From an uncultured Hyphomicrobiales bacterium (GTDB taxonomy: Bacteria; Bacteroidota; Ignavibacteria; Kapaibacteriales; UBA2268): a DNA stretch of 64,000 bases. Positions 9,862-53,490 of the stretch are shown here, one piece after another. A program made the translations under genes and the position numbers. The stretch covers positions 81-64,080 of the forward strand of contig CAZOBD010000004.1 of NCBI GenBank assembly GCA_964577665.1, given 5' to 3'. Under the pieces are notes generated by a model, which had not been told where the DNA came from, did not search any database, and worked only from the letters and a program-made list of their open reading frames with translations. Numbering within the stretch: position 1 is the first letter of the stretch; every line of letters begins with the position of its first letter.

Positions 9862-10030
9862 ATTTAGGAAAATCACACAAAGGGATGATTATTTTTAAGC
9901 AAGATGTCAGACACCTTTGAGGTGTCGGACATCTGATTATCAAAAAACATCCCCTCTTGAGAGCAATGACCTAACAATTGGAGGAAAAAGATGTCCAACA
10001 TCTGGCAGATGTCGGACATCTGAAGGGCAA
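9862..10030. repeat. Intergenic palindromic repeat cluster: one copy of module C (…CCATGATTTAGGAAAATCACACAAAGGGATGATTAT…, minus orientation) plus two GATGTCNNACATC-type hairpins (9903-9933, 9990-10020)
   Basis: Module C recurs at 12790-12835, 12955-12998, 13673-13715, 37506-37548 and 53140-53180; hairpin arms recur at 37287, 49363, 56667 and 60817. Confidence 0.7.
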
Positions 10031-10404
10031 AGTAAAAAATAAAAAGATAAAACAATATTTTAAATTATCTTAATCATTGGAATATTCTACTGAGATGATT
10101 CCGAGTCTAACTGATTTTTCTAATATTTAAAAGTTAAGAGCGTCTATAATTATTATTAGTTTAACCATAGACTTAAATATGAAGAAAAAGAATAAATGCT
10201 GTATGAAGGGATGCAAGAACTGTAAAATTTTTAAAAAACTGAAAAAAAAGAAGAAAAACAGTTGATTATTAAAAATCCTTACTAATATTTTAAAGTATTT
10301 CTTTTATCGTAAATTTTAAAAAAAATAATTCCTTGTAAAATCCAATATTTTTCCTTATATATGGATATTATAAATGTTAATTTTTTGTTAACGGAGGACT
10401 CCTT

Positions 10405-12549
10405 ATGAAAAAATTATTTACCTTCATTGCTGTTTTCATTCTTTTCTCGTTTAACGCATCATTTTCTCAGGATATTGTCAGCACTGATCCACAGCCGAGA
10501 AACGTAGTGCTCGAAGAATTCACGGGCATTTACTGCGGTTTTTGTCCCTACGGACATGAAATAGGTCAGGCAATACAGGACAATAATCCCGGCAGAGTAG
10601 TACTGATTAATATTCATGCAGGCAGTTATGCCAATCCGCAGCCCGGAAGCGGGCATCCTGACTTCAGAACACCCTATGGCGACGCGCTTGTGCAGATGTC
10701 TAATCTTGCCGGTTACCCGGCAGGTCAGGTCAACAGACAGCTTTTTTCAGGAGAAGAATATCAGCAGCAGCGAGCCGGAGCTCTTGCCCTAAGCAGAGGC
10801 GGATGGGAAGCTGCTTCTAACGTAATTCTGGCGGATGGTAATTCTCCCGTGAATATTGGAGCAAAAGTTGAAAGAAAATCCCTTACTACACTTGAAATCA
10901 CTGTTGAGCTGTACTACACATCTGATGTTTCCCAAAACAACAAACTTAATGTAGTCCTTCTGGAAAACGGCTTCGTAGGTTATCAGGGAGGCAGTAAAGG
11001 CGGCGATGATTATGTACATAATCATATTTTGAGAGACATGATTACAGGACAGTGGGGCGAAGTCATATCAGAGACTTCGCAGGGTTCCCTTGTTACAAAA
11101 ACATACACTTACGAACTTACCGACAGGGTCGATCCCTTGGGAAGCGAGCTTCAGCTTGCATTTTTCGTTACAGGAGCGGACAACAAATATATTTATACCG
11201 GTACCGGGATTGAAGTTCCCGGAATAGAACCTAATGCTAAACTTACTACAACCGATGAACCATTAAAAGCAATTTTCAGCGGAAGCACGGTGGAAAAGAC
11301 TGCTGCCCTTGAAAATATTTCCGATATGGAAATCACATTTGATATTACCTTGAGTGCAATTTCGGAAACTGCTGCCGGATGGCAAGCCGGACTAAAATAT
11401 CCTGACATTACTCCTCTTACTTTGGCACCGGGTGAATCCCGTGAAATATCTTATTACATTACATCAGATAATGAATACGGTAAAATGAGCGTAGAGCTGA
11501 ATGCCGCAGAGAAGGAAACTGAACTTATGCTTTCCTATTCCGACGGACTGAAAGTAATCTCAGCGGATGCAGAGAATTTCCTTGTGGCAGATAAAGCCGA
11601 AGAATCTTATTCCATCAAGCAGTTTATTCAGGATGCAGGATATTACGATTTTCTCGAAATATATCCTGAAGAATACGAATTTATAAGCAATCTTATGAGT
11701 AATGCAGAAACGATTGTATGGGACGCCGGCGTAAATTATTCTCTTACAACAAATGACATTAACTCACTTATTAATAAGATGAACAATGACGTTAATCTGC
11801 TGATTTTAGGAAACAGAATAATCGGCAATCTTAGCGGAGCAAATGCACTCGGATTTTTCGGAACGAATTATCTGGGTTATTCCACTCAGGGATACGGAAG
11901 CTCTCCCTGGCGGGTATGGCTGTCGGGAGTAAGCGGCGACCCCATAACAGGCTCTCTTGGGTTGAATTTTGAAGGAAACCTCATACAATGGCTTATTTCT
12001 ATAGTTGAAATAACCGATCCTCAAACTACAACACCAATACTGCATTTCACAAATACCGGCAAAAGAGTTATTTATAATTCACAAACTCAGACGAGAGATA
12101 CTTTTGATATTAAAGGGGAAGATGCCGTTTTCGGAGTGAAAATTGATAAAGGAGCTAGCAAACATGTGCTAATAGGTATTACTCCTTATGTTATCGTTGA
12201 TCAAAACAGAAGAGAAATAATTGTAAGAGAAGCCCTGAACTGGATAAACGGCGTAGTTGATGTAGAAGACAACTCTTTGAATGCATCATCAAATGTTTCT
12301 GCAAGTCCGAATCCTGCTGAGAATTTTCTTAATCTCCGTTATAATATAACCGGAACTAAATCTTCGCAGGTATCAATAAAAGTGGTTGATAATTTCGGCA
12401 GAATAGTTGCCTGCACTAAAACAATGCACCTTAATCCCGGAAATTATACGGAATATCTCGACCTGAGAAAAATTTCCGCCGGATCATATAATGTATTGGT
12501 CAGCATAAACGGCAAAACCGAGACAGAAAAGATAATTGTAATAAAATAA
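10405..12549 (+). CDS. Secreted protein with T9SS (Por) C-terminal sorting domain; N-terminal region with thioredoxin-like CxxC (EEFTGIYCGFCP), possibly Omp28-like
   Basis: Signal peptide; CGFC motif near N-terminus; C-terminal ~80 aa beta-sandwich tail (…SPNPAENFLNLRYNI…SYNVLVSINGKTETEKIIVIK) typical of T9SS CTDs. Confidence 0.55.
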   Translation: MKKLFTFIAVFILFSFNASFSQDIVSTDPQPRNVVLEEFTGIYCGFCPYGHEIGQAIQDNNPGRVVLINIHAGSYANPQPGSGHPDFRTPYGDALVQMSNLAGYPAGQVNRQLFSGEEYQQQRAGALALSRGGWEAASNVILADGNSPVNIGAKVERKSLTTLEITVELYYTSDVSQNNKLNVVLLENGFVGYQGGSKGGDDYVHNHILRDMITGQWGEVISETSQGSLVTKTYTYELTDRVDPLGSELQLAFFVTGADNKYIYTGTGIEVPGIEPNAKLTTTDEPLKAIFSGSTVEKTAALENISDMEITFDITLSAISETAAGWQAGLKYPDITPLTLAPGESREISYYITSDNEYGKMSVELNAAEKETELMLSYSDGLKVISADAENFLVADKAEESYSIKQFIQDAGYYDFLEIYPEEYEFISNLMSNAETIVWDAGVNYSLTTNDINSLINKMNNDVNLLILGNRIIGNLSGANALGFFGTNYLGYSTQGYGSSPWRVWLSGVSGDPITGSLGLNFEGNLIQWLISIVEITDPQTTTPILHFTNTGKRVIYNSQTQTRDTFDIKGEDAVFGVKIDKGASKHVLIGITPYVIVDQNRREIIVREALNWINGVVDVEDNSLNASSNVSASPNPAENFLNLRYNITGTKSSQVSIKVVDNFGRIVACTKTMHLNPGNYTEYLDLRKISAGSYNVLVSINGKTETEKIIVIK

Positions 12550-12589
12550 GTCAAGTATTACTCTTTAAAAATGGGGCTGTATTTAACTA

Positions 12590-12975
12590 CGGTCCCATTT
12601 TTTTTTCATCTGTTTATTTTATGCCCCACCCTAACCCTCCCCAAAGGGAGGGAATTCAATGATATTGCTCCCTCCCCTTGGGGAAAGCCGGGGTGGGGTC
12701 TCATACGGTTTTTCATCTCATTCCCAAACTCCGATTTGGGAATGTACTTTTCTTTCAAAACTCTGTTTTGCATTAACTCGTAAACAATCAACTCCTTGTG
12801 TGATTTTCCAAAATCATGGGCGTTTCATCTGTTTATATTCGATCCCTCCCCGGTACTCCCTTACAAGAAAAGGAAGGAGAAATATTATTGAAGCCCCTTA
12901 TTTATAAGGGGGTTTGGGGGATCTCTTCTATCGATTTCATTTTTTTTCCAAATATTCATCTCCTTGTGTGATTTC
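12590..12975. repeat. Mosaic of palindromic repeat modules: G/C-rich hairpin (CCCCACCC…GGGTGGGG with nested CCCTCCCC…GGGAGGG), module A (TCCCAAACTCCGATTTGGGA), two copies of module C
   Basis: 12700-12780 is the reverse complement of 53181-53260; modules shared with loci at 13522, 37160 and 53140; unusually G+C-rich for this AT-rich genome. Confidence 0.75.
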
Positions 12976-13521
12976 TTAAATCATGGGGGTTTCATATAGC
13001 ACACTCTGCCTTGTGCAGTTAATATTCAAACTGAGAATATCTGGACGAGAGTAATGTCCTGAAGGATCGAAATTTTGTCTTTCTCTTAAGACGGAGCTTA
13101 AATCCAGTTCAGCCGTGATAAATGCTTCTTTTTCACAAACAGGTTCGATTATCCATGATCCATCAGGGGCAGCAATGCAGGAACCGCCGCCGGCAGGCAT
13201 ACTTTTCATTTTAGATTTTATCAAAGATGCATGAGGCAGTTCGTCTGAAATATTTTTTGTAAAGAGTATTGAAGAAGCAGAAATAACAAAACTCCGCGAC
13301 TCTTTTGCAATAAAGCGGGCAATGTCATAAGTATTTTCCAGACTGCCGGGCCAGACAGCTATATGGACATTTATACCCTGAGCATACATTGCGCTTCTTG
13401 CCAGCGGCATCCAGTTTTCCCAGCAGTTAAGCCCCCAGAGAGTAAAACCGTCAAGCTTATGTGCCGCGATACCGCTGCCGTCACCTATCCCCCATACGAG
13501 TCTTTCTTCATAAGTAGGCAT
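12976..13521 (-). pseudogene. Truncated nitrilase / carbon-nitrogen hydrolase (C-terminal part only, catalytic Cys block [11 protein letters not shown] present, N-terminal Glu/Lys blocks missing)
   Basis: 181-aa ORF begins at conserved internal [12 protein letters not shown] block; the ATG lies exactly at the edge of repeat module B and the last 5 codons are encoded by repeat module C. Confidence 0.6.
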
Positions 13522-13724
13522 GGGGTTTCAGATGGACTCCACTTTTAAAGTGGAGTCCATCTACGAATAAATTTTTCACCATCCCCTTGGGGAGGGCTTG
13601 GGTGGGGTCTCTTACGGTTTTTCTTTTACAATACGATTTTTCCTTCAATATATGGCAAATCTACCAAAAATAATCATCCCCTTGTGTGATTTTCCCAAAT
13701 CATGGTTGTTTCATTTAAAGAAAT
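13522..13724. repeat. Mosaic repeat cluster: module B perfect palindrome AGATGGACTCCACTTTTAAAGTGGAGTCCATCT, G-rich module (CCCCTTGGGGAGGGCTTGGGTGGGG), module C
   Basis: Module B recurs at 37467-37499; G-rich module recurs at 12678 and (inverted) 53395-53440. Confidence 0.75.
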
Positions 13725-16700
13725 TTATTTTTTCATTATTTTTGCATAAAAAATATCGGTGCCGCTGCTTAGAATTACTAAGTAAGCTCCGTCAGGCTTT
13801 CCGCTGAGGTCTAATCGAGTTTCGGCACCGGATGATACGCGCTTCTCTAAAATCTGCCTGCCAAGCATATCCTTAACTGTTATTCGTAATTCACCCGTTA
13901 AATGATTCAATGGAGTAATATTGAAAACACCTTCTGAAGGATTGGGATAAATTTTGAAAGGCAATGCTTTTAGGCTGATTTCATCAACGCTTGAGACTAC
14001 ATTGTAAGGATTGGACATCTCCGAGCATCCCCACTCATTGAATATTTCTACGGTATAATTACCAAGCTTGTCAATCTCATAAGTTCTTTCATCCGCCCCG
14101 AAAATTCGCTTTCCGTCATAATACCATCTGTATCCTGCTGCTTTAACCGTTTCCAAAAGGCTGCCTTGTTTCTGCCACAGCGGAGGTTTTTCCGGCTTTT
14201 CTTTCTGCTCAACGGTTATCTCGTCATAAGCCTTGCAGTTATCAGCAGTAAAAGCGGTAACTGTATATTTACCGGGCTCTGTTATTTTTATTGAACGTGA
14301 GTCTCCTCCGTTTGACCATTCATATTTTGTAAAGCCGAAATTAACACTTAAGGTCAGTTCTTCGCCTTCGCAGAGCCAGCCTTCGCCGGAAGTGGAAATC
14401 TTTAAATCAGGTACTGAAAGCACTTCTACCGCAACACCTCGAGACTTGGCATTACACCCGCTTTCGTCTTCCACTATCAAAGAATAAACACCTTCTTTTT
14501 TTACAATGATTTCTTTTGAAGTCTCGCCGGTTGACCAGAAATAATTTTCATAATCGCCCATTGCTCTGATAATTACACTGTCTCCCCGGCAAAATTCCGT
14601 TTCTCCGATTACTTCTACTTCGGGCTGGGGCAGATTGCAGTCCAAAAGAGGTATTTCCCAAACTCCCCTGCCGTAAGTGCCTGCAATAAGTTTTTCAGAA
14701 TTTTCCTGAATTTTGAGCTCTGAAACAATAACGTTAGGCAAAGCAGCGCCATAACTCTCCCACCAGCCGGAGCCGTAATCGGAATAATAAACACCGACAT
14801 CAGTACCTATATAGAGCCTGTCGGGTGAATTTTTTTGATAAACTATAGTGTTTACAGGTATATTCGGCATATTGCCGCTCAGATTAACAGGGTTTTCATC
14901 ATCATACCGTACAACTTTATGATTCGGATCAAATCCAGAATAAGTAATCCAGACTCGTTTATTATTATTAGGATCAACTTCGATTGAACTTATTCCTGCT
15001 GCCGCTGTCTGTATCTTCTTCCATGTATCCCCGCCGTCATAAGTTACGTACAAATCACTTAAAGTACATGCGTAAATCGTTTTTGAATCCGATGGAGCTA
15101 CTTTAATATAGCGAAAAGCCGTACCATTCAGATTAGTAGTTTTTTTCCAGGAATCACCCCTGTTAGTTGACTTGTAAATATTTTGAAAACCAACATATAT
15201 TGTTCTGCCGTCGTTTGGATCTATAGCAATGGGAGTAACCCATGCGCTGTTTTCCTGTACTTGATAAACGGATATAATGGGTCCGTCAAAGTCTTTTCCG
15301 AAATTGGTTGATAAATAAAAAGAGCCGTATGGATTAGAAGAATAGCAGTACCTCGGGTTAGACGGATCAATGGCACACATCATGCCGTCGCCTGCGCCAA
15401 CATGCGTCCATTTTCCGTTTTGATATCTGCTGGTACCGTTATCCTGAGAACCTGCAATAATGTAATCATCTCCGCTTTGTGAAATATCCACTGAGTAAAA
15501 CTGCGTAATGGACATTCCGTCGCTGATAAAATGCCATGACGAACCGCCGTTTGTAGTGTAATCAATGCCGCCGTCGTGAGCTGCAAAAAGCTTAGTAGAA
15601 TTATTTTGGTATTCCATATCGTGAATATCAGCATGGACATAAGGCTTGCCATAATACCCAATCCAATGTGCGTTCATATCCCATGAATAACCAAAATTAC
15701 CCGATTTCCAAATATTAATGCCTCCGGTATGAATAGTATTGGTATTATTAGGGTGAACAGCGAGACAGAGATCATACCAGCCCTGCCCTGTTTGAGCGTC
15801 TCCGCCTGTGCCTTTGTATCTGCCGAGAAGATTAGGAGTACTATTATCTGTAACTTTCTGCCATGTCTTTCCCATATCCGTAGATATCTGAACAGAATGA
15901 AAAGATTTGGTGTTTATTATGGAACATAAAGCATACACATAATTTGAGTTTTTTCTTGTAACAGCCAGTGCAATCCTGATAACGTCGCTGAATTGCTTCA
16001 TTAACTCCCAGTTTCTGCCGTTATCGGAAGAGCGGTATATGGCAGTGCCTCCGGTATATGAAAATGTGGATGCATATACATAATTCGGATCACCGGGATG
16101 GAACTCCATGTCCTTAAAATATCCGCCGGGTGATACCTGATCCCAAAATTTCCCGCCGTCAGTTGTGCGGTATATTCCTTTTGCGGTTGCCGCAAGAACA
16201 ATATTCTCATTTTGGGGATGAACCAGGATACGTGTTATCTGATTTCCGCTTTCAAAATCGTAAGAAAGCCCTGTGGTCTCCCAAGCAGCTCCCCCGTTAG
16301 TAGTTTTTAAAAGACCTATGCTGTAGTAAGGCGAAGTAACGCTGAGAGAACCTACGGCATCACCGGTAGCTACATACACAATATTCGGATTAGTTTTTGC
16401 AATGGCAATATCAGAAACGCCGAGGGAGAGAAAATTGGTATATGGAAATACCGACCAGGTGCTGCCTCCGTCGGTAGATTTCCATACACCTCCCGAAGCA
16501 GCTCCTGCCCATAGTTCATTGAAATTTGCCGGATGAAATCTTATTACATTTACTCTGCCGATACCTTGATGCCTTACTGATGGCGTAACATCAGGCGTAT
16601 TAACCGGACCGAGAAGTTTCCACTCAAGGTCCTTAGCTGCAAGAGGCTGATCACCGTTTTTTTCATATAACATAAGTTCATTTTTCTTAAACTCAGTTAC

Positions 16701-17009
16701 TTCTTTAAGAATTTCACCGCCGTCGGGTATAGTGCCGTTTGGAAAAACTCTTGATTCCCAAAAGTACTCCCAGCGCTTAAACTGCTTCCAGCCCCGTTTC
16801 ATTTCATCGGGTAAGCCTTCCCACTGAACAGAGAAAGCATCCCTGATCTGATAAAAATCAGGCTTTTCGATTTTTTCAAGTTCTTTCAGCGGGCGGTTGT
16901 TTTTCTCAAGAAGTTCGTCGGAAATATTCTTCTCGGAAAGTACAGTTCCTCCGGCAATGATAAGTGAAAAAATAATTAATAAATATTTTTTAATTGTCGT
17001 CGTATGCAT
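13725..17009 (-). CDS. Large secreted BNR/Asp-box repeat beta-propeller protein (GH74/sortilin-Vps10-like) with T9SS C-terminal sorting domain
   Basis: 1094 aa; signal peptide; ≥8 S/T-x-D-x-G-x-T/S-W Asp-box motifs (STDGGSTW, TTNGGAAW, TTDGGKFW, SSDNGRNW, STDMGKTW, TYDGGDTW…); Ig-like Cys-containing region; CTD …IYPNPSEGVFNITPL…LVILSSGTDIFYAKIMKK. Confidence 0.7.
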   Translation of the reverse strand: MHTTTIKKYLLIIFSLIIAGGTVLSEKNISDELLEKNNRPLKELEKIEKPDFYQIRDAFSVQWEGLPDEMKRGWKQFKRWEYFWESRVFPNGTIPDGGEILKEVTEFKKNELMLYEKNGDQPLAAKDLEWKLLGPVNTPDVTPSVRHQGIGRVNVIRFHPANFNELWAGAASGGVWKSTDGGSTWSVFPYTNFLSLGVSDIAIAKTNPNIVYVATGDAVGSLSVTSPYYSIGLLKTTNGGAAWETTGLSYDFESGNQITRILVHPQNENIVLAATAKGIYRTTDGGKFWDQVSPGGYFKDMEFHPGDPNYVYASTFSYTGGTAIYRSSDNGRNWELMKQFSDVIRIALAVTRKNSNYVYALCSIINTKSFHSVQISTDMGKTWQKVTDNSTPNLLGRYKGTGGDAQTGQGWYDLCLAVHPNNTNTIHTGGINIWKSGNFGYSWDMNAHWIGYYGKPYVHADIHDMEYQNNSTKLFAAHDGGIDYTTNGGSSWHFISDGMSITQFYSVDISQSGDDYIIAGSQDNGTSRYQNGKWTHVGAGDGMMCAIDPSNPRYCYSSNPYGSFYLSTNFGKDFDGPIISVYQVQENSAWVTPIAIDPNDGRTIYVGFQNIYKSTNRGDSWKKTTNLNGTAFRYIKVAPSDSKTIYACTLSDLYVTYDGGDTWKKIQTAAAGISSIEVDPNNNKRVWITYSGFDPNHKVVRYDDENPVNLSGNMPNIPVNTIVYQKNSPDRLYIGTDVGVYYSDYGSGWWESYGAALPNVIVSELKIQENSEKLIAGTYGRGVWEIPLLDCNLPQPEVEVIGETEFCRGDSVIIRAMGDYENYFWSTGETSKEIIVKKEGVYSLIVEDESGCNAKSRGVAVEVLSVPDLKISTSGEGWLCEGEELTLSVNFGFTKYEWSNGGDSRSIKITEPGKYTVTAFTADNCKAYDEITVEQKEKPEKPPLWQKQGSLLETVKAAGYRWYYDGKRIFGADERTYEIDKLGNYTVEIFNEWGCSEMSNPYNVVSSVDEISLKALPFKIYPNPSEGVFNITPLNHLTGELRITVKDMLGRQILEKRVSSGAETRLDLSGKPDGAYLVILSSGTDIFYAKIMKK

Positions 17010-24255: not shown

Positions 24256-24382
24256 AGTTTTTCCTTTTATTTTTTCAAAAAACACACCAATTATAAATAT
24301 AATAAAAAATAAGATAAATAGTTACAAAATAAAAAACATAAAGAATCGTAAAATTATTAAAGCTACAAAATAAGGAATTTTT

Positions 24383-24637
24383 ATGACGGAGTATAAAGAG
24401 ATAAACAAAGTATTATACAGAAGCGGCAAGCCTATTGCATTACTGCTTGATATTTCAGAATTTAAGTTGTTTTTAAAAGATAAGGAAAATTTTAATATCA
24501 TAAGCAGACCTGTCGAAGAAAAAGGTAAAAGCATCAGTGATTTTGTCGGGGCTTTAAACCATTATGCAAATCCTGAACTGATTGAGAAAGAAAAAGATGC
24601 ATGGAAAAATGCAGTGAAGGAAAAATATGCTTGCTGA
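24383..24637 (+). CDS. Putative antitoxin of a VapBC-like toxin-antitoxin pair
   Basis: 84-aa ORF overlapping the downstream PIN-domain gene by 11 bp; no family recognised by eye. Confidence 0.5.
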   Translation: MTEYKEINKVLYRSGKPIALLLDISEFKLFLKDKENFNIISRPVEEKGKSISDFVGALNHYANPELIEKEKDAWKNAVKEKYAC

Positions 24638-37041: not shown

Positions 37042-37159
37042 AACCTGCTCCTCTTTTAGATGTGAATGATAACGATGTTTTCACGAAACAGCGTTTTCCA
37101 TTATTTTGAACAAAAATAGCTTTTTTCAGCACAATATGCAAATTTTTTTAGGGAGAGAG

Positions 37160-37580: not shown

Positions 37581-37746
37581 CAAAATTTCTGAGATTACTT
37601 TCTTTTATCAAAGACGGATATACATTTCTTAAGGAAAAATCCGTTGCTACTGCTTTACAAACTTTTCACAAATAAAAAATAAACAATTATTCTGCAAAAT
37701 TCGTAAAAAAATAGTGAAAAACAGCCTGCCGAAAAGAAACAAATCG

Positions 37747-45681: not shown

Positions 45682-46983
45682 ATGAAAGCAGAGAAACTCG
45701 AACTGCCCCTGCTGCAGGACGCAAACATCAAAGGAAAAACAATTCTGATGAGAGTTGACCACAACGTGGTTAAAAAAGGCGAGATAATAGACCCTTACCG
45801 AATAGATGCCACAATCGGCACAATTTTCCACATATATGCCCGCGGCGGTAAAGTCATTCTTATGACTCATGTAGGAAGACCCCGCAATAAAAAAACCGGT
45901 GAGATAAAAATATCCGATCATACTTCCATTGAGCCTATTGTTGAATACTTGAACAAAAAACTCAATATAAATCTTGTTGCTGCTGAACCGGGAGAATATG
46001 GCAGCGAAGGTATTGAGCATCTCGATGATTCAATTAAAACACTTCTAAGGGATATGGATGAAGGGACAATTGACGGCATCTATCTGCCAAATACCCGCTG
46101 GTTCAAAGGCGAGGAAAGCAAGGATGATGCGGCTCAAAAATTTGCAGAAGAGCTTGCAGAACTTGCCGATATTTATGTAAATGACGCCTTTGGAAGCTGG
46201 CAGCCACATGTATCAACTTATCATATTGCAAAACAGCTTCCATCATACGCAGGACATTTAATGCAGAAAGAATTAATCAACTTAGAAAGAATATACGATC
46301 CGAAAAAACCTTTCATTGCAGTTGTAGCCGGTTCAAAATTTGACACAAAAATAGATTCACTTTATGAATTGATAAAAAAAGCCGATAAGCTTATTCTCGG
46401 CGGGGTTATGTATAATGCCTGGCTTTCCGCAAAGTACAACTTCGACATAAAAGGCATTAGCGACGAAGATATGAAACATGCGCGGGATTTCGTAGAGTTT
46501 TCCAAAAAATACGAAGGCAAACTTATTGAATTGCCATATATCGTTGAGTCCGATACACTCGAAGGAAAATTTGAAGGAAAGCACAGAACACACAATATAA
46601 AAGAACTCAAGCCCGGCACTAAATTAAATTATGTCTTAGATGTAGCGCCGGAGTCTTTCGACAATGAGGAAATAAAAGATGTTTTCCATGAAGCAAAAAC
46701 CGTTTTTGTCAATGCGGTAATGGGATTCACCCCGCACTTTAACGAGGGAACAATAGCTCTCGACCAGACCATTGACGAAAACCGAGAAGCATCAAAACTA
46801 TATGGCGGCGGCGACACCATGCAGGAGCTGAAAAGATTGCTGCCGGGGCTTTACATTGTTGCCATTGACAGCCCGAAATATTATATATTTACAGGAGGCG
46901 GTGCAGTTCTCCGCGCTATCCAAGACGGAACATATCTCGGCTTGGAACCGGTAAAAGCTTTACATGAGCAGTATTCCAAATAA
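45682..46983 (+). CDS. Divergent phosphoglycerate kinase-like paralog
   Basis: 433 aa; PGK-like blocks with substitutions (RVDHNVV vs RVDFNVP; MTHVGRP vs SHLGRP; C-terminal GGGDTMQEL vs GGGDSAAA); AGGAG RBS 6 bp upstream. Confidence 0.6.
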   Translation: MKAEKLELPLLQDANIKGKTILMRVDHNVVKKGEIIDPYRIDATIGTIFHIYARGGKVILMTHVGRPRNKKTGEIKISDHTSIEPIVEYLNKKLNINLVAAEPGEYGSEGIEHLDDSIKTLLRDMDEGTIDGIYLPNTRWFKGEESKDDAAQKFAEELAELADIYVNDAFGSWQPHVSTYHIAKQLPSYAGHLMQKELINLERIYDPKKPFIAVVAGSKFDTKIDSLYELIKKADKLILGGVMYNAWLSAKYNFDIKGISDEDMKHARDFVEFSKKYEGKLIELPYIVESDTLEGKFEGKHRTHNIKELKPGTKLNYVLDVAPESFDNEEIKDVFHEAKTVFVNAVMGFTPHFNEGTIALDQTIDENREASKLYGGGDTMQELKRLLPGLYIVAIDSPKYYIFTGGGAVLRAIQDGTYLGLEPVKALHEQYSK

Positions 46984-47017
46984 GTATTTGTAATTGTTTA
47001 ATCATTGGAGCAGATAT

Positions 47018-48205
47018 ATGCAGAGTATGGACAATGGAAATTTTAAATTCAAACATGTATTAATCCGCGTGGATTTCAATGTTCCCTTAGATTCAAAGCT
47101 AAACGTTGTAGATGATATGAGAATTACCGAATCTCTTCCATCCATAGACCAGATAATTGATGACGGAGGCATTCCCATAATTATATCCCATCTCGGGAGG
47201 CCCGGAGGAAGTCAGGAGAGAAAGTTCTCATTAGCTCCCGTTGCCAAGTATATGCATCAAAAATGGGGCTACAATGTAATTTTTGCCGAAGACTGCATAG
47301 GTCATCATCCTGAAAGAGCAGTTCAGCAGGCAAAACCCGGGGATGTAGTATTATGTGAAAATTTACGTTTCCATGAAGGAGAAAAGAAAAACGATATCGA
47401 ATTCGCAAAGCAGCTTGCAAAGCTCGGAGACTGTTACGTAAATGATGCTTTCGGTACTGTTCATCGCTATCATGCCAGCATACATGCACTACCGGGGCTT
47501 TTTGAAAAGAGATATATGGGCAAATCCGTGCAGTTTGAACTTGAATACTTAAAAAACGCTTTAAACAATCCTGCTTCTCCTTATGTAGCCGTTATAGGCG
47601 GAGCTAAAATCTCAGGAAAAATTGAAGTTATCCGCACTCTTATCGATCAATGCGACAAAGTACTTATTGGCGGCGGCATGATATTCACCTTTTTTAAAGC
47701 CATGGGTTATAATATCGGCAGATCAATTTTTGAAGAAGATAAAATATCTCTTGCTAAAGAACTAATAGAGCTATCAAACGAAAAAGGCAAGTCACTGATG
47801 CTTCCCGAGGATATTGTAATTGCCGATAATTTTTCTCCCGATGCCGAAGACCAGACCGTTGCCGTGGATCAAATCCCATCGGACTGGATGGGAATGGACT
47901 TAGGTGATAACACAATAAATAAATATAAAGAAGTCATCTTAAATGCCAACACAATCACATGGAACGGACCCATGGGTGTTTTTGAATTCAGAAAATTTGC
48001 CCGCGGCACAAAACAAATAGGCAATGCCCTTGCAAACGCAACTTCAAAAGGCGCAATAACCATTCTCGGCGGCGGTGATTCCGCTGCGGCAATGAAAAAA
48101 ATGCACCTTATTAACAAGGTAACGCATCTGTGCCCCGGAGGAGGAGCTTGGCTGAAATATATGGAAGGCGGAGAACTCCCCGGAATAGAGGCTTTGAAAA
48201 AATAA
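47018..48205 (+). CDS. pgk: Phosphoglycerate kinase
   Basis: Canonical PGK blocks (LIRVDFNVPLD, ISHLGRPGG, …ILGGGDSAAAMKK…); ATG at 47018 with GGAG RBS preferred over TTG at 46994. Confidence 0.85.
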   Translation: MQSMDNGNFKFKHVLIRVDFNVPLDSKLNVVDDMRITESLPSIDQIIDDGGIPIIISHLGRPGGSQERKFSLAPVAKYMHQKWGYNVIFAEDCIGHHPERAVQQAKPGDVVLCENLRFHEGEKKNDIEFAKQLAKLGDCYVNDAFGTVHRYHASIHALPGLFEKRYMGKSVQFELEYLKNALNNPASPYVAVIGGAKISGKIEVIRTLIDQCDKVLIGGGMIFTFFKAMGYNIGRSIFEEDKISLAKELIELSNEKGKSLMLPEDIVIADNFSPDAEDQTVAVDQIPSDWMGMDLGDNTINKYKEVILNANTITWNGPMGVFEFRKFARGTKQIGNALANATSKGAITILGGGDSAAAMKKMHLINKVTHLCPGGGAWLKYMEGGELPGIEALKK

Positions 48206-48278: not shown

Positions 48279-49337
<1,059 letters not shown>

Positions 49338-49362
49338 AAACTATCTGAAAAGAATAATTAAA

Positions 49363-49410
49363 ATGTCCGGTATAATTACATGCCGGACATTTTTTTATTT
49401 TTTATTTATT
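49363..49410 (+). terminator. Rho-independent terminator after gap: ATGTCCGG-N12-CCGGACAT hairpin + T-run
   Basis: Perfect 8-bp stem followed by TTTTTTTATTTTTTATTT; stem belongs to the GATGTCCGGCATC palindrome family. Confidence 0.7.
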
Positions 49411-49547
49411 TAGTAAGTTTTCCACACAATTTTGTGGACAAAATGTGGAAAAGCATATCCTCATGTTGAAATATTTTACTTTGCCGTTCAAGAAAATTTA
49501 TTTTACTTGCCTGCATCTATTTGTCAAAAAAATAATCTGAATAATAA

Positions 49548-52500
49548 ATGAGAGATTTTGTACATCTTCATAATCATACGCATTTTTCCCTGCTGGATTC
49601 CATAACCGAACCAAAACAGCTGATTGAAGCCGCTCTAAAAGATGAGCAAAAAGCCATTGCTCTTACAGATCACGGAGTTATGTTCGGTTGTTTTCAATTT
49701 AATAAAATTGCGGGTAAACTTGGTATTAAGCCCATCTTAGGCATGGAAGCTTACGTCGCAAACGGGAGCAGGTTCGATAAGATTTCAGGAAAAGATAAAA
49801 ATAAAAAGAAACGCAATTATTTTCATCTGGTTCTGCTTGCAAAAGATATGCAGGGCTACAAAAATTTGATGAAGCTCACATCTCTCGGTCACACAGAAGG
49901 TTTTTACTATAAACCGCGGATTGACCGCGAGCTGCTTGAAAAATATCACGATGGCTTGATTGCAACAGGAGCCTGCATGGCAGGTGAAATAAATCACTGG
50001 CTTATTCAAAATGATATGGAAAAAGCTCGCGAAGCCGCAGTTTTTTATAGAGATCTTTTTGGTGATGATTTTTACATCGAGCTTCAGAACCATAACCTTA
50101 AAGAAGATGTATTTATATTAAACAGAGGTCCGAAACTTGCGGCAGAGCTTGGAATTAAAACGGTATGTACTAATGACGTACACTATCTGGAAAAAGAACA
50201 TGCCATTGCCCATAATGTTTATCTACTAATAAAAGATGTTAAGGGCAATGCAGAAAATATTGACATTAACAAACTTCGGTACCGTACTCCTGAGATGTAC
50301 TTTAAAACCCGAGAGGAAATGAACAAGCTCTTTGGGGATTATCCTGAAGCACTGGACAGTACGGTAGAAATTGCAGAAAAATGTAATCTCACATTTGAAA
50401 GCAAGCTTTTTATGCCTGAGTTTCCCATACCGAAAGAATCTTCTTCCACTACACTCGAAGAATATCTTGAAGAACTGACATTCAACGGCTTGCGAAAAAA
50501 ATACAAAGAAATAACTCCCGAAATAGAAGAACGCGCCCGTATGGAGCTTGATATAATCAAAAAAATGAAATTCCCGGGATATTTTCTTATTGTGCAGGAT
50601 TTTATCCGTGCCGCCAAGGAAATGGGAGTTCGCGTCGGTCCCGGACGCGGTTCCGCAGCAGGAAGTATTGTAGCTTATGCGCTGGATATTACAAATGTGG
50701 ACCCTCTGCCCTACAATCTTCTCTTCGAGCGCTTCCTTAATCCGGAAAGAGTAACTATGCCCGATATTGACATCGACTTCAACGATGAAAAACGGGATCT
50801 GGTAATCAATTACGTGAAAAGACTTTACGGAGAAAATGCCGTAGCCATGATTATTACTTTCAATAAACTTTCCACAAAAGCTGTTTTAAAAGATGTAGGC
50901 AGAGTGCTCGGCATTCATCACAGCGAGATCAATGACATAACTAAAAAAATTCCTGTGGTGCAGGGCAAAGTCACCCCTCTTGAGGATGCCCTTGAGCTTC
51001 CCGAACTTCAACATCTGAAAGACAGCAAAGATAAAAAAATCAGAGATTTAATAAGATACGGAATCCTTCTTGAAAATAAAAACAGAAATCCTGGCACTCA
51101 TGCAGCGGGAGTTGTCATTGCGCCCGATGAAATCACGAAATTTGTTCCCCTTTACCAAAACAGCAAGTCAAAAACTCAAAGCATTCCCGTTGCCACTCAA
51201 TACACCATGGAAGAAGTGGAAGGTTCCGGTCTTCTGAAAATGGATTTTCTGGGACTGCAAACACTTTCCATCATAGATCACACTCTGCAATTAATCGAAA
51301 AAAATTATGACAAGAAAATAGACCTTGACGCTATAGATTTCCACGACCCCAAGACTTATCAGCTTCTTTCGGAAGGCAGAACCCTTTCGGTATTTCAGTT
51401 CGAATCAAAGGGTATGCAGGAGTATCTTAAGCAGCTTAAGCCGCATAATCTGGAAGAAATCACGGCTATGAACGCACTTTACAGACCGGGACCAATGGAA
51501 AATATTCCTGAGTTTATTGCGAGAAAACACGGCAAAAACAAAATAGAATATCTCCATCCTATCATGGAGAAAGCATTAAAAACTACTTACGGAATAATAG
51601 TCTATCAAGAGCAGGTAATGCAGCTTGCACGGGACATTGCAGGTTTTTCCCTTGGAGGTGCTGATATTTTACGGCGCGCTATGGGTAAGAAAAAAGTTGC
51701 CGTTATGGAGCAGCAAAAACCGGTTTTCATAGAAGGAGCAGCAAAAAACGGCATAGATAAAAAAACTGCAGAAGAGATTTTCCATTTGATAGAAAAATTT
51801 GCCAAATACGGTTTCAATAAATCTCACTCTCTGGCTTATTCATATCTTGCATTCCAGACTGCATGGCTAAAAACTCATTATCCCGGTGAGTTTTTAGCTG
51901 CAAATATGAGCGCCGAAATCTCCGATCAGGATAAAATCGTAATGCTGATTGACGAAGCAAAGCATTTTGGAATTGAAGTAGTACATCCGGATGTCAACAA
52001 ATCTCTCGGTCAGTTCTATTCCAAAGATAAGAAAATCTTCTTCGGACTTACCGGCATAAAGAATGTGGGTACTCCTGCCGTAAACAGCATTATCAAAGCC
52101 AGAAACGAAAAGACATTTGAATCATTCTTTGATTTTGTTTCCAGGGTCGATACAAAACTTGTTAACAAAAAATCTTTAGAAGCGCTTGTATGCTCAGGAG
52201 CTTTTGACAGTCTGCATGAAGGAAGACGGGCAGCCTTATTCGCTTCTGTTGAATCTGCACTGGATTATGCCAGAGCGGTTTCTCAAAATGAAATGATACA
52301 GATGGACAGTCTTTTCGGCGAAAGCGCCGAAGCTGACCTCAGCGAACCGGAACTGCCGGAAATTGAGGAATGGCCTGAAATGATACGTCTGGAACATGAA
52401 AAAGAGTATCTGAATTTTTATATAAGCGGACATCCCCTGATGAATTTTTCTCCCTATGTAAACTCACTTTCTACGTGTAAAATATCAAAGTTTCCACCTG

Positions 52501-53021
52501 AGCTAAGCGGCGGTAAAATTTCGATATGCGGAATTGTTACCGGCATATCAAGAAAAATTGATAAAAACAACAATTCTATCGCATTTGTAACAATCGAGGA
52601 TTTCGACGGAAAAGCCGAATGTAAGTTCTGGAGCGAGACTTATAAAAAATTTGGATGGATGCTGGAAGAAGACAAAGTTCTTCTTATTGAAGGAACGGCT
52701 GAGTATGACGGTGAAAAGCTGAGTCTTACTGCAAGCAATGTAGCAGAGCCGGTGGAAGCCGCAAAAGATAGAGTAGAAGGATATGATATTTGGATAAACC
52801 TGAACGGCGACAGCGATGCCGAGAAAATCAAGAGTTTTCAGAAGCTGTGTAACAGTCCGGACACAACAGGCACTGTTATGTTTCACCTTCGCAATAAAGA
52901 AAATAATTTCTCCAAAGATTATATAGCTTATGATATTAATATAGATTTTGAAGAGAAAACGGTAAAAGCAATTGTCGATATTTTCGGAAAGAATTTTGTA
53001 CGATTCTTAAAACATGTTTAA
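49548..53021 (+). CDS. dnaE: DNA polymerase III alpha subunit
   Basis: 1157 aa; PHP domain start FVHLHNHTHFSLLDS; polymerase core and C-terminal OB-fold region of expected length. Confidence 0.9.
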   Translation: MRDFVHLHNHTHFSLLDSITEPKQLIEAALKDEQKAIALTDHGVMFGCFQFNKIAGKLGIKPILGMEAYVANGSRFDKISGKDKNKKKRNYFHLVLLAKDMQGYKNLMKLTSLGHTEGFYYKPRIDRELLEKYHDGLIATGACMAGEINHWLIQNDMEKAREAAVFYRDLFGDDFYIELQNHNLKEDVFILNRGPKLAAELGIKTVCTNDVHYLEKEHAIAHNVYLLIKDVKGNAENIDINKLRYRTPEMYFKTREEMNKLFGDYPEALDSTVEIAEKCNLTFESKLFMPEFPIPKESSSTTLEEYLEELTFNGLRKKYKEITPEIEERARMELDIIKKMKFPGYFLIVQDFIRAAKEMGVRVGPGRGSAAGSIVAYALDITNVDPLPYNLLFERFLNPERVTMPDIDIDFNDEKRDLVINYVKRLYGENAVAMIITFNKLSTKAVLKDVGRVLGIHHSEINDITKKIPVVQGKVTPLEDALELPELQHLKDSKDKKIRDLIRYGILLENKNRNPGTHAAGVVIAPDEITKFVPLYQNSKSKTQSIPVATQYTMEEVEGSGLLKMDFLGLQTLSIIDHTLQLIEKNYDKKIDLDAIDFHDPKTYQLLSEGRTLSVFQFESKGMQEYLKQLKPHNLEEITAMNALYRPGPMENIPEFIARKHGKNKIEYLHPIMEKALKTTYGIIVYQEQVMQLARDIAGFSLGGADILRRAMGKKKVAVMEQQKPVFIEGAAKNGIDKKTAEEIFHLIEKFAKYGFNKSHSLAYSYLAFQTAWLKTHYPGEFLAANMSAEISDQDKIVMLIDEAKHFGIEVVHPDVNKSLGQFYSKDKKIFFGLTGIKNVGTPAVNSIIKARNEKTFESFFDFVSRVDTKLVNKKSLEALVCSGAFDSLHEGRRAALFASVESALDYARAVSQNEMIQMDSLFGESAEADLSEPELPEIEEWPEMIRLEHEKEYLNFYISGHPLMNFSPYVNSLSTCKISKFPPELSGGKISICGIVTGISRKIDKNNNSIAFVTIEDFDGKAECKFWSETYKKFGWMLEEDKVLLIEGTAEYDGEKLSLTASNVAEPVEAAKDRVEGYDIWINLNGDSDAEKIKSFQKLCNSPDTTGTVMFHLRNKENNFSKDYIAYDINIDFEEKTVKAIVDIFGKNFVRFLKHV

Positions 53022-53139
53022 ATTTACACTTTTGAAAAGGCAAAAACGTAATATTTTATAGAAACTTCCATTTTTCAGGAAGATTTACGATATTTATAAA
53101 GCGGCTGATATCTTGAAATAAATAGATTAATAATAAATC

Positions 53140-53490
53140 AGCCATGATTAGGGAAATCACACAAGGAGATGATTATTTTAGAGTTAATGCAAAACAGAGT
53201 TTTGAAAGAAAAGTACATTCCCAAATCGGAGTTTGGGAATGAGATGTAAAATGTCATTCAAAGTACATTCCCAAATCGGAGTTTGGGAATGAGATGTAAA
53301 ATGTCATTCAAAGTACATTCCCAAATCGGAGTTCGGGAATGAGATGTAAAATGTCATTCTGTCCCTGTGATGAACTTGTTTCAGTATTGTTTCAGAATCT
53401 CACGGATGAGAGGGACACACCCCTTAATCACCTCTTGGGGAGGGGATATTCTTAACTTGAGATGCTGAAACAAGTTCAGCATGACAGCCA
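53140..53490. repeat. Mosaic repeat cluster incl. module C (inverted), 3x50-bp perfect tandem array (53211-53360) each with module A palindrome TCCCAAATCGGAGTTTGGGA, G-rich module, module F
   Basis: Direct reading; 53181-53260 = reverse complement of 12700-12780; 53395-53490 = reverse complement of 37310-37395. Confidence 0.8.

Follow-up and report, generated by a model that had tools for sequence, protein, structure and literature searches.

In the literature, most REPs are located 3′ of ORFs, and many of them are probably transcribed. A superfamily of REPs tagged CGTC, TGTC or CCTC is known from earlier reports on Chlorobi and Bacteroidetes, and the Neisseria repeat dRS3 has itself been classed as CGTC-1. 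We analyzed a 64-kb stretch of DNA (the window) on a MAG-type contig of an Ignavibacteria-like uncultured bacterium, in which the first-pass annotation had seen a single family of palindromic, REP- or MITE-like modules with an undescribed vocabulary at seven or more loci. All seven loci could be read in the sequence, and the similarity was well beyond chance at each of them (self-BLAST E-values down to ~1e-38). With dinucleotide shuffles as the null (n = 100), no shuffle contained any match to the core of module A, which is present five times in the window, or to that of module C, which is found four times when up to three mismatches are allowed and six times by alignment. Further members occur beyond the seven loci, namely GATGTCC hairpins at 56666–56698 and 60817–60847 and D-like segments at 24146–24172 and 26456–26482.

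One similarity is an inverted pair, 12709–12806 against 53251–53154 (95% identity, E = 8e-38 by self-BLAST; 104 nt at 93% with the repeat finder). Self-BLAST and the repeat finder also paired 12709–12765 with 37403–37459 (96%), 13521–13570 with 37458–37507 (94%), 32930–32971 with 37199–37240 (95%) and 9855–9896 with 13707–13666 (95%). A second pair of blocks, 37310–37395 and 53395–53490, had likewise been called reverse complements but proved to be mixed: by self-BLAST, 37319–37377 is inverted relative to 53447–53387 (88%), whereas 37362–37390 matches 53458–53486 in direct orientation (93%). The description as intergenic mosaics of the REP/BIME kind was borne out: short modules, most of which form hairpins, stand in varying combinations and orientations. 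The MITE label was not, as the modules lack terminal inverted repeats and a consistent target-site duplication. Nor did the loci preferentially border T9SS cargo genes, which occupy 4 of 14 flanking positions and account for ~8 of the ~43 genes in the window.

Not all modules are palindromic. As DNA, modules A, B, E, G (at 27350) and H (the GATGTCC type) form strong hairpins (fold z between −3.9 and −11), weaker ones are formed by F and by some copies of D (z −1.9 to −3.4), and module C is non-palindromic (z = −0.7; 43 of 200 shuffles fold equally well). The order of modules varies between loci (D-A-C; B-D-C; E-E-E-H-D'-F-A-B-C; C-A-A-A-F-D'-F). In other genomes, loci selected for A share only A, F and G as recurring modules, and those selected for E share only two E types; no occurrence of C or B was found outside the window. 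Given the varying order and the different sets that recur with A and with E, the vocabulary comprises at least six independent families of small repeats, not one.

Module E has a GTAG head and a GGG/CCC stem base and occurs both head-to-head and in alternating orientation. A head-to-head heterodimer of GTAG-type REPs lies at 32903–32968, with one unit on the minus strand (32903–32931, GTAT-GGGCGAACC..GTTCGCCC) and one on the plus strand (32940–32968, GTAG-GGGCAGACC..GTCTGCCC), and three units alternate within 37164–37280 (37164–37191, minus; 37209–37237, plus; 37257–37280, minus). Both E sequences were found in at least 120 metagenome contigs (GC 31–74%) and in 39 viral contigs, and in three contigs of other organisms E lies beside or within genes for RAYT, a Y1 transposase. 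Four RAYT candidates all matched NCBIfam REP_Tyr_transpos (E = 1e-13 to 1e-17), and three of the four matched Pfam Y1_Tnp (E = 1e-4 to 1e-7), the candidate at locus L053 giving no Pfam match. This arrangement of E and RAYT is a published hallmark of RAYT subclass 2.4, and module E is a canonical GTAG-tagged REP of the type associated with that subclass. Motif scan and Pfam revealed neither a Y1 nor any other transposase in the 64-kb window. Module B, a perfect hairpin of 15–16 bp at 13521–13570 (minus strand, GTAG followed by ATGGACTCCACTT..AAGTGGAGTCCAT; z −9.2) with a 94% copy at 37458–37507 (minus), also looks GTAG-tagged and is probably a RAYT substrate.

Modules A, F and G share another layout, in which a tag leads into a stem that opens with AT and closes on a short loop, and a tail of 3 nt follows. 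The A unit at 12709–12765 (plus) has a TCTC tag and a 10-bp hairpin (12719–12744) with the loop CTCCGA, followed 3′ by GTACTTTTC and then by a second, small hairpin, CAAAACtctgTTTTG. It forms part of a 104-nt A-C composite (12709–12812) with an inverted copy at 53148–53251. Another unit at 37403–37459 (plus) has one stem mismatch (ATTCACAAA), and three units lie at 53195–53359 (minus), where 53210–53359 is a tandem array of 3 × 50 nt with 98–100% identity, its first unit belonging to the inverted composite. Module F lies at 37363–37390 (minus; TGTC-ATTCTGAAC-ttg-TTTCAGAAT-CTC), and the segment 53371–53490 holds a broken copy (53371–53400) and an intact variant (53459–53486, minus; TGTC-ATGCTGAAC-ttg-TTTCAGCAT-CTC). 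Hairpin G, at 27350–27385, is a perfect 16-bp palindrome (cTGTC-ATTCCTGC-attc-GCAGGAAT-GACag; z −11). Published CGTC-tagged REPs, including dRS3, have the same tag-AT-stem-loop-tail layout, from whose definition A departs in its 6-nt loop and YCTC tag; on these features A, F and G appear to belong to the CGTC-type superfamily, and H perhaps does.

The modules are not confined to the window: A and E are present in many other genomes. Exact copies of module A occur in one phage type and in six further MAGs of the FCB group. In the six MAGs we counted at least 54 exact copies at 45 loci, and 52 of the 54 (96%) are intergenic, next to ordinary housekeeping genes. The repeat, identical over 24–61 nt, is the sole nucleotide similarity between these genomes and the window. 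Orientation relative to the upstream gene was unbiased (21 against 25 in 46 scorable cases), which makes a strand-specific RNA role of A less likely. No transposase was detected by motif scan and Pfam in 360 kb around the A copies elsewhere. To assess covariation, we compared 55 distinct A-family copies with 500 shuffles and with slid controls. Stem cells were paired in 98.4% of cases, against 87.5% in shuffles, and 4 of 10 pairs showed compensatory changes (43 cells), a level reached in none of the 500 shuffles; in the slid controls the pairing signal collapsed. Variants keep the loop YTCCGA and swap the stem (e.g., GTTACTAAA/TTTAGTAAC, CTTACCAAA/TTTGGTAAG and ATTGCGAAA/TTTCGCAAT). Module A is thus under structural constraint, with strong stem covariation, and behaves like a dispersed DNA element.

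Module C, ~45 nt long, is found at 9848–9896 (plus), beginning where an SSF transporter gene (8369–9856) ends, in its last codons and stop codon; at 12782–12828 (minus); at 12950–12996 (minus), where it supplies the final codons and stop codon of a truncated CN_hydrolase ORF; at 13666–13714 (minus), 11 nt past the stop codon of the gene at 13725–17009; at 37502–37548 (minus), sharing 5 nt (AATAA) with the end of B; and at 53133–53179 (plus), 112 nt past the dnaE stop codon. All six copies are co-directional with the gene upstream. Since C is also not a hairpin, an RNA or 3′-UTR role fits it better than the REP model. Indels of 1 nt distinguish the copies, which therefore keep no common reading frame.

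The remaining modules carry no strand assignment unless stated. Module D is a compound G/C-rich hairpin at 12620–12700 (CCCCACCC..CCCTCCCC..GGGGTGGGG; −24.1 kcal/mol, z −4.8), whose right half (12662–12714) is 83% identical to 13571–13623. The repeat finder and folding identified a D-like G/C-rich segment at 12838–12925, of which 12838–12892 is 76% identical to the D-like segment at 27158–27212 (hairpin CCTCCCTTAcaagTAAGGGAGG) and 12897–12923 is complementary at 93% to both 24146–24172 and 26456–26482. The D' module at 37319–37355 (ATCCCCTCCCCAAGAGGGGATTAAAGGGTGTG) is inverted relative to 53411–53447, which lies between the broken and the intact F. Two H hairpins (9901–9936 and 9988–10023; z −7.0 and −5.7) combine TGTC with a CRRCATCT stem, and a short one lies at 37284–37302 (AAAGATGTCCAACATCTTT). 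H hairpins appear to be partly terminator-like: those at 56666–56698 (plus, T9), 26 nt past a folD-like gene, and 60817–60847 (plus, T7), with convergent genes on either side, carry T-runs directly 3′ of genes and may have acquired a secondary role.

Several junctions bear on how the mosaics change. A CN_hydrolase 3′ fragment (12976–13521, minus; Pfam profile positions 120–251 of 256) has module C at one edge and B at the other, indicating that the gene was truncated at the mosaic. B and C, which overlap at 37503–37507, are 98 nt apart at 13571–13668; this segment, made up of the D copy at 13571–13623 and another 45 nt, has AATAA at both flanks and may be an insertion between them. Beside the mosaic at 37598–37643 (plus) lies a captured scrap of the GH31 gene, 46 nt copied from 43194–43239 (89% identity, with 12 of 14 residues identical). 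Among foreign loci, L037 carries a 24-nt insertion in the hairpin loop relative to L004 and L035. In the nearest relative, DnaE is just 77% identical and the genes are ordered differently.

That chimeric joins at repeats produced these patterns during assembly or binning is barely credible. The window is a MAG-type contig, and short-read assemblies do break at the modules: Logan contigs end at 9995, 12608/12633, 27336, 37336 and 53197, within or beside modules, one of these ends lying 14 nt ahead of hairpin G and another inside D' (37319–37355). Two independent Logan assemblies nevertheless match the window at 99.96–100% over 9995–12633, 27336–37336 and 48548–53197, including whole modules and module–gene junctions, and many unrelated assemblies contain these modules too. 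Copies within the window could by themselves cause such breaks, which are therefore no proof of further genomic copies. It is also very improbable that the modules are relics left by the decay of small genes or a single larger mobile element (a toxin–antitoxin gene or an IS end, for example). Real gene fragments abut the mosaics, and the inverted A-C composite translates as a 32-codon ORF (53143–53241), but in other genomes that frame runs into a stop codon ahead of the A hairpin, the 135-aa ORF at 37225–37632 has no Pfam match, no frame survives the indels in C, and the modules occur independently of each other.

A role as functional RNA or transcription signals, with hairpins serving as intrinsic terminators and 3′ mRNA stabilizers, C as a 3′-UTR element, and resemblance arising without transposition from copying or convergence of useful terminators, is unlikely. 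The canonical terminators formed by the H copies at 56666 and 60817, a conserved TTTT at +5 to +8 after A, which scored terminator-like, the placement of all C copies and the position of published REPs are consistent with it. However, one spacer stacks up to nine modules, a normal terminator (12567–12602) already precedes the mosaic at 12.6 kb, and several of the hairpins are without a T-run or do not face a gene (9988–10023). The identity of A across otherwise dissimilar genomes, its unbiased orientation and the linkage of E to RAYT genes also count against this role, and no Rfam family matched the modules, whether at the gathering score or with E values up to 5 allowed. Quite unlikely, too, is a NIME-like recombination substrate, in which the intervening sequences are spacers and arrays promote exchange or rearrangement of adjoining genes. 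A (ATTCCC-N12-GGGAAT) resembles dRS3 (ATTCCC-N8-GGGAAT), other repeat families are interleaved with hairpins as in NIME arrays, array edges show gene truncation and capture, two phage contigs carry A-type hairpins, and foreign loci show half-hairpin arrays and the loop insertion. Yet A forms a regular array only at 53210–53359 and is single elsewhere, no recombinase was found in the window or beside the 54 foreign A copies, and the flanks are not enriched in surface-protein genes. The half-hairpin array junctions vary by 0–5 nt, as slippage would explain more readily than crossover at a fixed point.

We favor, with a probability of about 0.62, the reading that the loci are intergenic nests of at least six unrelated, non-autonomous REP-type families whose elements act as single-strand hairpins. 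Each family would be a 25–60-nt unit recognized as a folded single strand, and the families would have accumulated side by side, in places overlapping or interrupting one another. GTAG-tagged members (E, probably B) would be acted on by a REP-associated tyrosine (HUH/Y1) transposase, normally a single-copy gene and presumably encoded elsewhere in the genome; by cutting and rejoining the hairpin during passage of the replication fork, this enzyme would give rise to new copies. Members with a YCTC or TGTC tag and the pattern "ATTC...GAAT" (A, F, G and perhaps H) would be part of the CGTC-type superfamily and moved by a putative enzyme. Copies would survive only where harmless and hence gather in the few spacers that tolerate them, most of these 3′ of genes; there, slippage and illegitimate recombination at hairpins could yield tandem amplification, truncated neighbors and captured gene scraps. 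We infer that transposition and nest growth by insertion operate in this genome; any effect on transcription would be secondary, some copies having become useful as terminators or 3′ mRNA hairpins. Most families in the pile-up belong to two REP superfamilies described before, the GTAG-tagged and the CGTC-tagged one, and small repeats are packed between genes in a similar way in the BIME mosaics of E. coli and the NIME mosaics of Neisseria.

Reading of the seven intergenic loci at which the first-pass annotation had placed a shared set of short repeats (9862-10030, 12590-12975, 13522-13724, 27160-27395, 32888-32975, 37160-37580 and 53140-53490), together with repeat searches and self-alignment of the window, confirmed that shared repeats are present at all of them. 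In the self-alignment, 12709-12806 matched 53251-53154 at 95% identity (E 8e-38), within a 104-nt composite of modules A and C that lies at 12709-12812 and, inverted, at 53148-53251. Further matches joined 12709-12765 to 37403-37459 (96% identity), 13521-13570 to 37458-37507 (94%), 32930-32971 to 37199-37240 (95%) and 9855-9896 to 13707-13666 (95%), and 53210-53359 proved to be a tandem array of 3 x 50 nt carrying three A units. The core pattern of module A was matched five times in the window and that of module C four times, and none of 100 dinucleotide-preserving shuffles contained any match, indicating that the similarity is above chance. Copies also occurred outside the seven loci, namely GATGTCC hairpins (module H) at 56666-56698 and 60817-60847 and D-like copies at 24146-24172 and 26456-26482. 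Computed from the coordinates of all parts, the repeats cover about 1.7 kb and so make up some 2.7% of the window and about one-fifth of its non-coding DNA (coding, about 87%).

The surroundings of these repeats are ordinary chromosomal genes, including dnaE, cytochrome bd, two phosphoglycerate kinase paralogues, folD, mutS2 and transporters, together with at least eight proteins bearing a T9SS tail and some toxin-antitoxin genes. The named relatives of the DnaE protein were Ignavibacteria, Kapabacteria or Bacteroidota MAGs at no more than 63% identity, and a single sequence was closer (L050, 77%). The gene order of L050 is different and the modules are absent from it, which made a comparison of filled with empty sites impossible. 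The suggestion that the loci tend to border T9SS cargo genes was unsupported, since T9SS genes, which number about 8 among the window's roughly 43 genes, occupied 4 of the 14 mosaic-flanking positions. The two phosphoglycerate kinase paralogues are adjacent (45682-46983 and 46994-48205), the first being the more divergent (Pfam PGK E 8e-84 vs 6e-143). Two WD40 beta-propeller T9SS paralogues, at 22888-24285 and 25204-26592, are 95% identical over their 5′ 300 nt (23938-24237 and 26248-26547); a D-like G/C-rich motif precedes each, and a PIN-domain gene (24627-24983) separates them. Elsewhere, 55025-55751 carries the overlapping genes of a nucleotidyltransferase/HepT-like toxin-antitoxin pair, and a 12-nt tandem repeat (CTTTTTCTGGTG, about six units) at 776-861, within an ORF on the minus strand (747-1268), would encode a short peptide repeat.

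The modules had been described as palindromic. Folding as DNA bore this out for A (z −5.8), B (−9.2), the two E types (−7.2 and −3.9), the hairpin at 27350 (module G, −11), the H hairpins (−5.7 to −7.0) and the long D structure (−4.8), but not for C (−0.7). The window has 26 perfect hairpins whose stems reach 8 bp or more, and 17 of them fell in its non-coding 13%. Module order differed at each locus: D-A-C-D′-C at 12.6 kb, B-D-C at 13.5 kb, E-E-E-H-D′-F-A-B-C at 37.2 kb and C-A-A-A-F*-D′-F at 53.1 kb, where D′ marks D-like modules and F* a broken copy of F. Contig loci from other genomes had A, F and G alone in common with the window when they were retrieved for A, and the two E types alone when they were retrieved for E. 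Module C had no exact match in viral or metagenome contigs, and module B had no match in viral contigs. With an order that varies by locus and families that separate in other genomes, the modules are independent repeat families and not, as had been supposed, a single vocabulary.

Five copies of module E were found in the 64-kb window, all of them intergenic. A tag-and-stem scan resolved them into a head-to-head pair, 32903-32931 (−) and 32940-32968 (+), and a triple of alternating orientation at 37164 (−), 37209 (+) and 37257 (−), within 37164-37280. Their heads read GTAG at 32940, 37209, 37191 (−) and 37280 (−, overlapping the stem), and GTAT at 32931 (−). The two hairpin types, GGGCAGACC..GTCTGCCC (z −3.9) and GGGCGAAC..GTTCGCCC (z −7.2), have stems of 8-11 bp. 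GTAG-tagged REPs are defined as short G/C-rich imperfect palindromes with a stem of 5-13 bp (PMC6006769), and E shows the GT[AG]G foot, the short G/C-rich imperfect palindrome and the head-to-head or alternating arrangement of this class. A lone RelB-like antitoxin gene (33089-33283) adjoins the E-type pair.

The E pattern GTAGGGGCAGACCNNNNTGTCTGCCC was matched in at least 120 metagenome contigs, with GC contents of 31 to 74% among the matches listed, and in 39 viral contigs. A motif scan of the 120 E loci listed revealed four RAYT-like ORFs (RAYT, REP-associated tyrosine transposase), at L053:340-945, L059:9567-10145, L059:8721-9404 and L130:11-535, which carry the motifs MPNH[IML]H, WQ(R/N)NY(Y/W)EH and Y[IV]xxNP. 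Pfam Y1_Tnp matched three of the four (E 3e-4 to 1.5e-7), and the NCBIfam model "REP-associated tyrosine transposase" matched all four, below its equivalog cut-off (E 3e-13 to 2e-17). Each ORF either lies within about 300 nt of a REP or contains REPs in frame; the types found beside or inside the ORFs of L053, L059 and L130 were GGGCAGAC and GGGCGAAC, both of which are present in L130. In L059:8400-10300, on the 750-kb metagenome contig Ga0315298_1000003, two RAYT genes stand in tandem, each with a double-foot REP of its own (GTAGGGGCAATTCATGAATTGCCCCTAC and GTAGGGGCGACCGGCCGGTCGCCCCTAC) both within it and at its flanks, and the window's E-type REP lies immediately upstream of them. In these other organisms, the association of E with RAYTs is the published signature of TnpA_REP subclass 2.4, which is RAYT group 4 of Bertels and in which the stem base consists of three G-C pairs (Quentin 2018, PMC6006769). 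The window itself encodes no transposase, integrase or Y1 protein recognizable by Pfam on its genes or by a HuH...Y regular expression. RAYTs, for which the first-pass annotation had proposed a search, were found with E-type REPs in other organisms but not in the window. Module B may belong to the same superfamily. Both of its copies, on the minus strand, read GTAG followed by a 13-bp stem that GTAG overlaps by 2 nt, and B would therefore possibly be a long REP of the GTAG type.

A second REP superfamily is characterized by CGTC, TGTC or CCTC tags that are unpaired, stems of 8-9 bp starting with A then T, loops of 4-5 nt and a 3-nt tail with the consensus CCA; it is without a dedicated transposase, is known from Proteobacteria, Chlorobi, Bacteroidetes, Spirochaetes and Thermotogae, and includes Neisseria dRS3 and Rickettsia RPE-4 and RPE-6 (Di Nocera et al. 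2013, PMC3733652). In the tag-and-stem scan, G read cTGTC-ATTCCTGC-attc-GCAGGAAT-GAC, F read TGTC-ATTCTGAA-cttgt-TTCAGAAT-CTC and A read TCTC-ATTCCCAAA-ctccga-TTTGGGAAT-GTA. All stems of this set start with AT (ATTCCTGC, ATTCTGAA and ATGCTGAA, 8 bp each; ATTCCCAAA, 9 bp). The loops of G (4 nt) and F (5 nt, or 3) are within the described range, and the invariant 6-nt YTCCGA loop of A is outside it. The tails are GAC, CTC and GTA/GCA, none being CCA, and the TGTC tag of G pairs with its tail (GACAG). Among 69 copies of A, the tag was TCTC in 26, CCTC in 13 and another sequence in 30. G and F thus seem to fit the CGTC-type definition, and A shares its architecture with a (Y)CTC tag. As in the superfamily at large, no adjacent transposase was found: no recurrent transposase family was represented in the 102 ORFs flanking 54 A copies (best 25 of 106 Pfam families, a listing that could miss a singleton), and the HuH...Y expression, which found the RAYTs in the 120 E loci, found none near A in the window and 49 A-associated loci.

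Neither A nor E is confined to the window. The exact A 24-mer occurred at no fewer than 45 loci in six MAGs (by label, one Bacteroidetes, one Cloacimonadales and four low-GC TPA MAGs of Hyphomicrobiales) and in two related IMG/VR phage contigs. The four TPA MAGs are titled "uncultured Hyphomicrobiales" (among records L004-L048), a label that looks doubtful. Among the matches listed, 52 of 54 A copies were intergenic, and the flanking ORFs were housekeeping genes; of the 102 ORFs scanned there, 4 had T9SS sorting domains, a figure for all MAG loci pooled that does not separate the loci of origin. The only nucleotide similarity between these loci and the window was the repeat itself, 38-61 nt at 85-97%. 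Homologous 412-aa genes beside A in L011 and L032 were considered as a gene tied to the repeat; they encode succinyl-CoA-synthetase-like ATP-grasp enzymes, and their common position is therefore coincidental.

The A hairpin is under constraint. In variants, both arms of the stem change and the loop is kept; across 55 distinct sequences 98.4% of cells were paired, and compensatory changes affected 4 of the 10 stem pairs (43 cells), a result that shuffles and slid controls came nowhere near. Outside the stem, CT at −3 and −2 was invariant in 68 of 69 copies, and the T-run at +5 to +8 was conserved. Folding was stronger downstream of A than upstream when 40 nt were compared on each side (mean −3.2 vs −1.5 kcal/mol, p 1.4e-4), and when downstream sequences were folded individually they usually contained a second small hairpin of subfamily-specific sequence, which RNAalifold on a MAFFT alignment missed. 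The phage contigs (L051:560-1300 and L052:1-700) carry two variants of the A-type hairpin, ATTCCCAAA.. and GTTCCCAAA.., separated by about 440 nt and situated between small ORFs; the following small ORF has its ATG in the right arm, 7 nt past the loop GGAG. Phages of this type are a possible vehicle for the horizontal spread of A.

Several loci bear signs of turnover. The modules B and C share 5 nt at 37503-37507 and are 98 nt apart at 13571-13668, where the intervening segment includes a D copy and has AATAA on both sides. This AATAA was the sole candidate duplication, no terminal inverted repeats were found in the 104-nt A-C composite or the other units, and no parent IS was seen, all of which speaks against the MITEs initially suggested. 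The CN_hydrolase ORF at 12976-13521 (−) is truncated, retaining only the domain's 3′ half (positions 120-251 of the 256-position profile), with its start abutting B and its stop codon within C. At the edge of the 37-kb mosaic, 37598-37643 is a non-coding 46-nt direct copy of part of the GH31/T9SS gene, 43194-43239 (89% identity; 12 of 14 aa identical). In other genomes, the loop of a CATTGCGAAA..TTTCGCAATG hairpin in L037:1-185 is the precise site of a 24-nt insertion (ACCTGTGCTGAGCGTCGTCGAAGT), and two paralogous copies from that MAG (L004:215-380 and L035:3085-3250) have the hairpin intact. Half-hairpin arrays, in which a left A arm plus 11-19 nt is repeated one to five times before one complete hairpin, were found at ten or more foreign loci (L005, L013, L014, L016, L017, L031, L034, L036, L040, L041 and L042). 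Their junctions lie in or just past the loop and vary by 0-5 nt, from after YTCC to after YTCCGATTT. On this account a fixed cleavage point was dropped, and the arrays are read here as products of slippage induced by the hairpin; they could have arisen by slippage at a stalled hairpin or by loop-directed processing.

The account with most support treats the mosaics as nests in which non-autonomous REP-type elements of several families lie together. A RAYT-type Y1 transposase would mobilize E, and perhaps B, in trans; A, F and G would belong to the CGTC-type group; and copies would pile up in permissive spacers, where slippage or illegitimate recombination would then reshape the nests. The data themselves establish that the repeats recur, that their hairpins are constrained, that the families are independent, that copies are restricted to intergenic DNA and spread over genomes, and that E is linked to RAYTs in other organisms; we infer both the activity of a RAYT-type enzyme in this genome and the growth of nests through insertion. 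Other explanations of the mosaics have been weighed against this account. One is an assembly artefact, but two independent public assemblies, from runs SRR7048224 and SRR7048225, match the window at 99.96-100%, and the sequence is therefore not artefactual. The repeats do disrupt short-read assembly: the breakpoints of those two assemblies (9995, 12608/12633, 27336, 37336 and 53197) are inside or beside modules. Another is decayed genes, and a 32-codon ORF does run across the inverted A-C composite; however, C copies vary by 1-nt indels and a stop codon interrupts that frame in other genomes, so that the coding relic was rejected, along with a possible resemblance to GxxExxY or four-helix-bundle proteins. 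The ORF at 37225-37632 had no Pfam match.

The modules might instead be selected as terminators or 3′ RNA elements. The H hairpins at 56666 and 60817 directly follow genes and are succeeded by T9 and T7, respectively, and each of the six C copies runs in the direction of its upstream gene. Two of these copies follow the same gene, which leaves five independent contexts and makes the co-direction only suggestive. H at 9988-10023 faces no gene, and among the matches listed A took the two orientations relative to the upstream gene 21 and 25 times. A structured RNA of a described kind, as had been considered, received no backing from Rfam: no module in the window matched at the gathering score, and at E up to 5 the only matches at mosaic loci were two sub-threshold ones to ordinary terminator hairpins (12523-12610 and 27254-27314), with nothing relevant to a known RNA family. 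A promoter in C was likewise discarded, as a sigma-70 scan flagged no C copy and a hand match to the Bacteroidetes TTTG/TAnnTTTG pattern existed in one copy only.

Taken as nests of REP-type elements, the mosaics extend REP/BIME/NIME-type arrangements to an uncultured Ignavibacteria-like lineage and suggest that REPs of the GTAG and CGTC types can share spacers and mix within them. In practice, such repeats break short-read MAG assemblies, yield spurious small ORFs and mark sites of gene truncation. The single item worth following up is the cross-lineage A unit, a CGTC-like hairpin unit of 24-61 nt that is near-exact across several FCB-group lineages and one phage type. Because the CGTC superfamily has no known mobilizing enzyme, a search for one could start in the genomes that carry A. 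A bolder proposal, which we consider improbable, is that A forms the core of an undescribed two-hairpin element (YCTC tag, 9-10 bp ATTCCCAAA stem, YTCCGA loop, TTTTC and a variable second hairpin) that would move horizontally between FCB-group phyla (Ignavibacteria-like, the Bacteroidetes MAG and Cloacimonadales) and phages and be processed by a hairpin-loop-specific enzyme, the half-hairpin arrays and the loop insertion being its footprints. Were this true, orphan CGTC-type REPs, including Neisseria dRS3 and Rickettsia RPEs, would gain a tractable mechanism of mobilization.

The first-pass annotation had not recognized the repeat vocabulary as a described family. Exact module sequences gave only unrelated shRNA and primer matches in the searchable literature, and no paper on such repeats in Ignavibacteria was found; the vocabulary is nevertheless not wholly new, in that E is a GTAG REP and A, F and G have the CGTC-type layout. 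In Nostoc and Anabaena, families of 20-30 nt repeats are reportedly inserted beside or into each other to give intergenic mosaics (Elhai et al. 2008), and the nests described here seem comparable to these small dispersed repeats in their layered insertion, with different sequences and a different host phylum. Neisseria NIMEs consist of a 20-bp dRS3 (ATTCCC-N8-GGGAAT) flanking 50-150 bp RS elements in arrays (Bentley 2007, PMC1797815; Parkhill 2000), and the mosaics resemble them in the interleaving of ATTCCC...GGGAAT hairpins with many short repeat families, the long intergenic arrays and the gene fragments close by. They nonetheless fall outside the strict definition: the A hairpin has 24 bp (ATTCCC-N12-GGGAAT) rather than 20 bp, hairpin-spacer-hairpin periodicity is seen only at 53210-53359, A being single at the other loci, and variable surface-protein genes are not enriched nearby (T9SS-tailed genes, 4/14 flanks vs ~8/~43). 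No recombinase was found in the window, and a NIME-like recombination substrate is a less likely reading than REP-type nests. The host phylum also differs, and according to Bentley et al. 2007 (PMC1797815), NIME arrays were at that time unseen outside Neisseria. E. coli BIMEs share with the mosaics the alternating orientation of REPs with short conserved linkers between them (37164-37280; 32903-32968), the location in spacers at gene ends and the mosaic of motifs. The mosaics differ in that a single spacer can contain several hairpin families unrelated to one another as well as a repeat that is not palindromic.

The closest resemblance of E is to the REPs of subclass 2.4, with which it shares a GT[AG]G head, a base of three G-C pairs and a loop of 4-6 nt. 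As in GTAG REPs and REPINs, two sequence types stand head-to-head and alternate in extragenic DNA, and identical REPs flank, or sit in frame within, RAYT genes of other organisms, as in the REP/RAYT system (Nunvar 2010; Bertels & Rainey 2011; Di Nocera 2013, PMC3733652; Quentin 2018, PMC6006769). GTAG families for Bacteroidetes/Chlorobi are absent from the list of Di Nocera et al. 2013 (PMC3733652), and B departs from GTAG REPs in its unusually long stem (13-16 bp), which overlaps its GTAG. F and G resemble CGTC REPs in their TGTC tag, 8-bp AT-starting stem, 4-5 nt loop and 3-nt tail; A differs in its invariant loop, its YCTC tag and the conserved GCAnTTTTC and second small hairpin downstream. 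Overall, the nearest known systems are the GTAG REP/RAYT system of subclass 2.4, CGTC-tagged REPs, Neisseria NIMEs and E. coli BIMEs.
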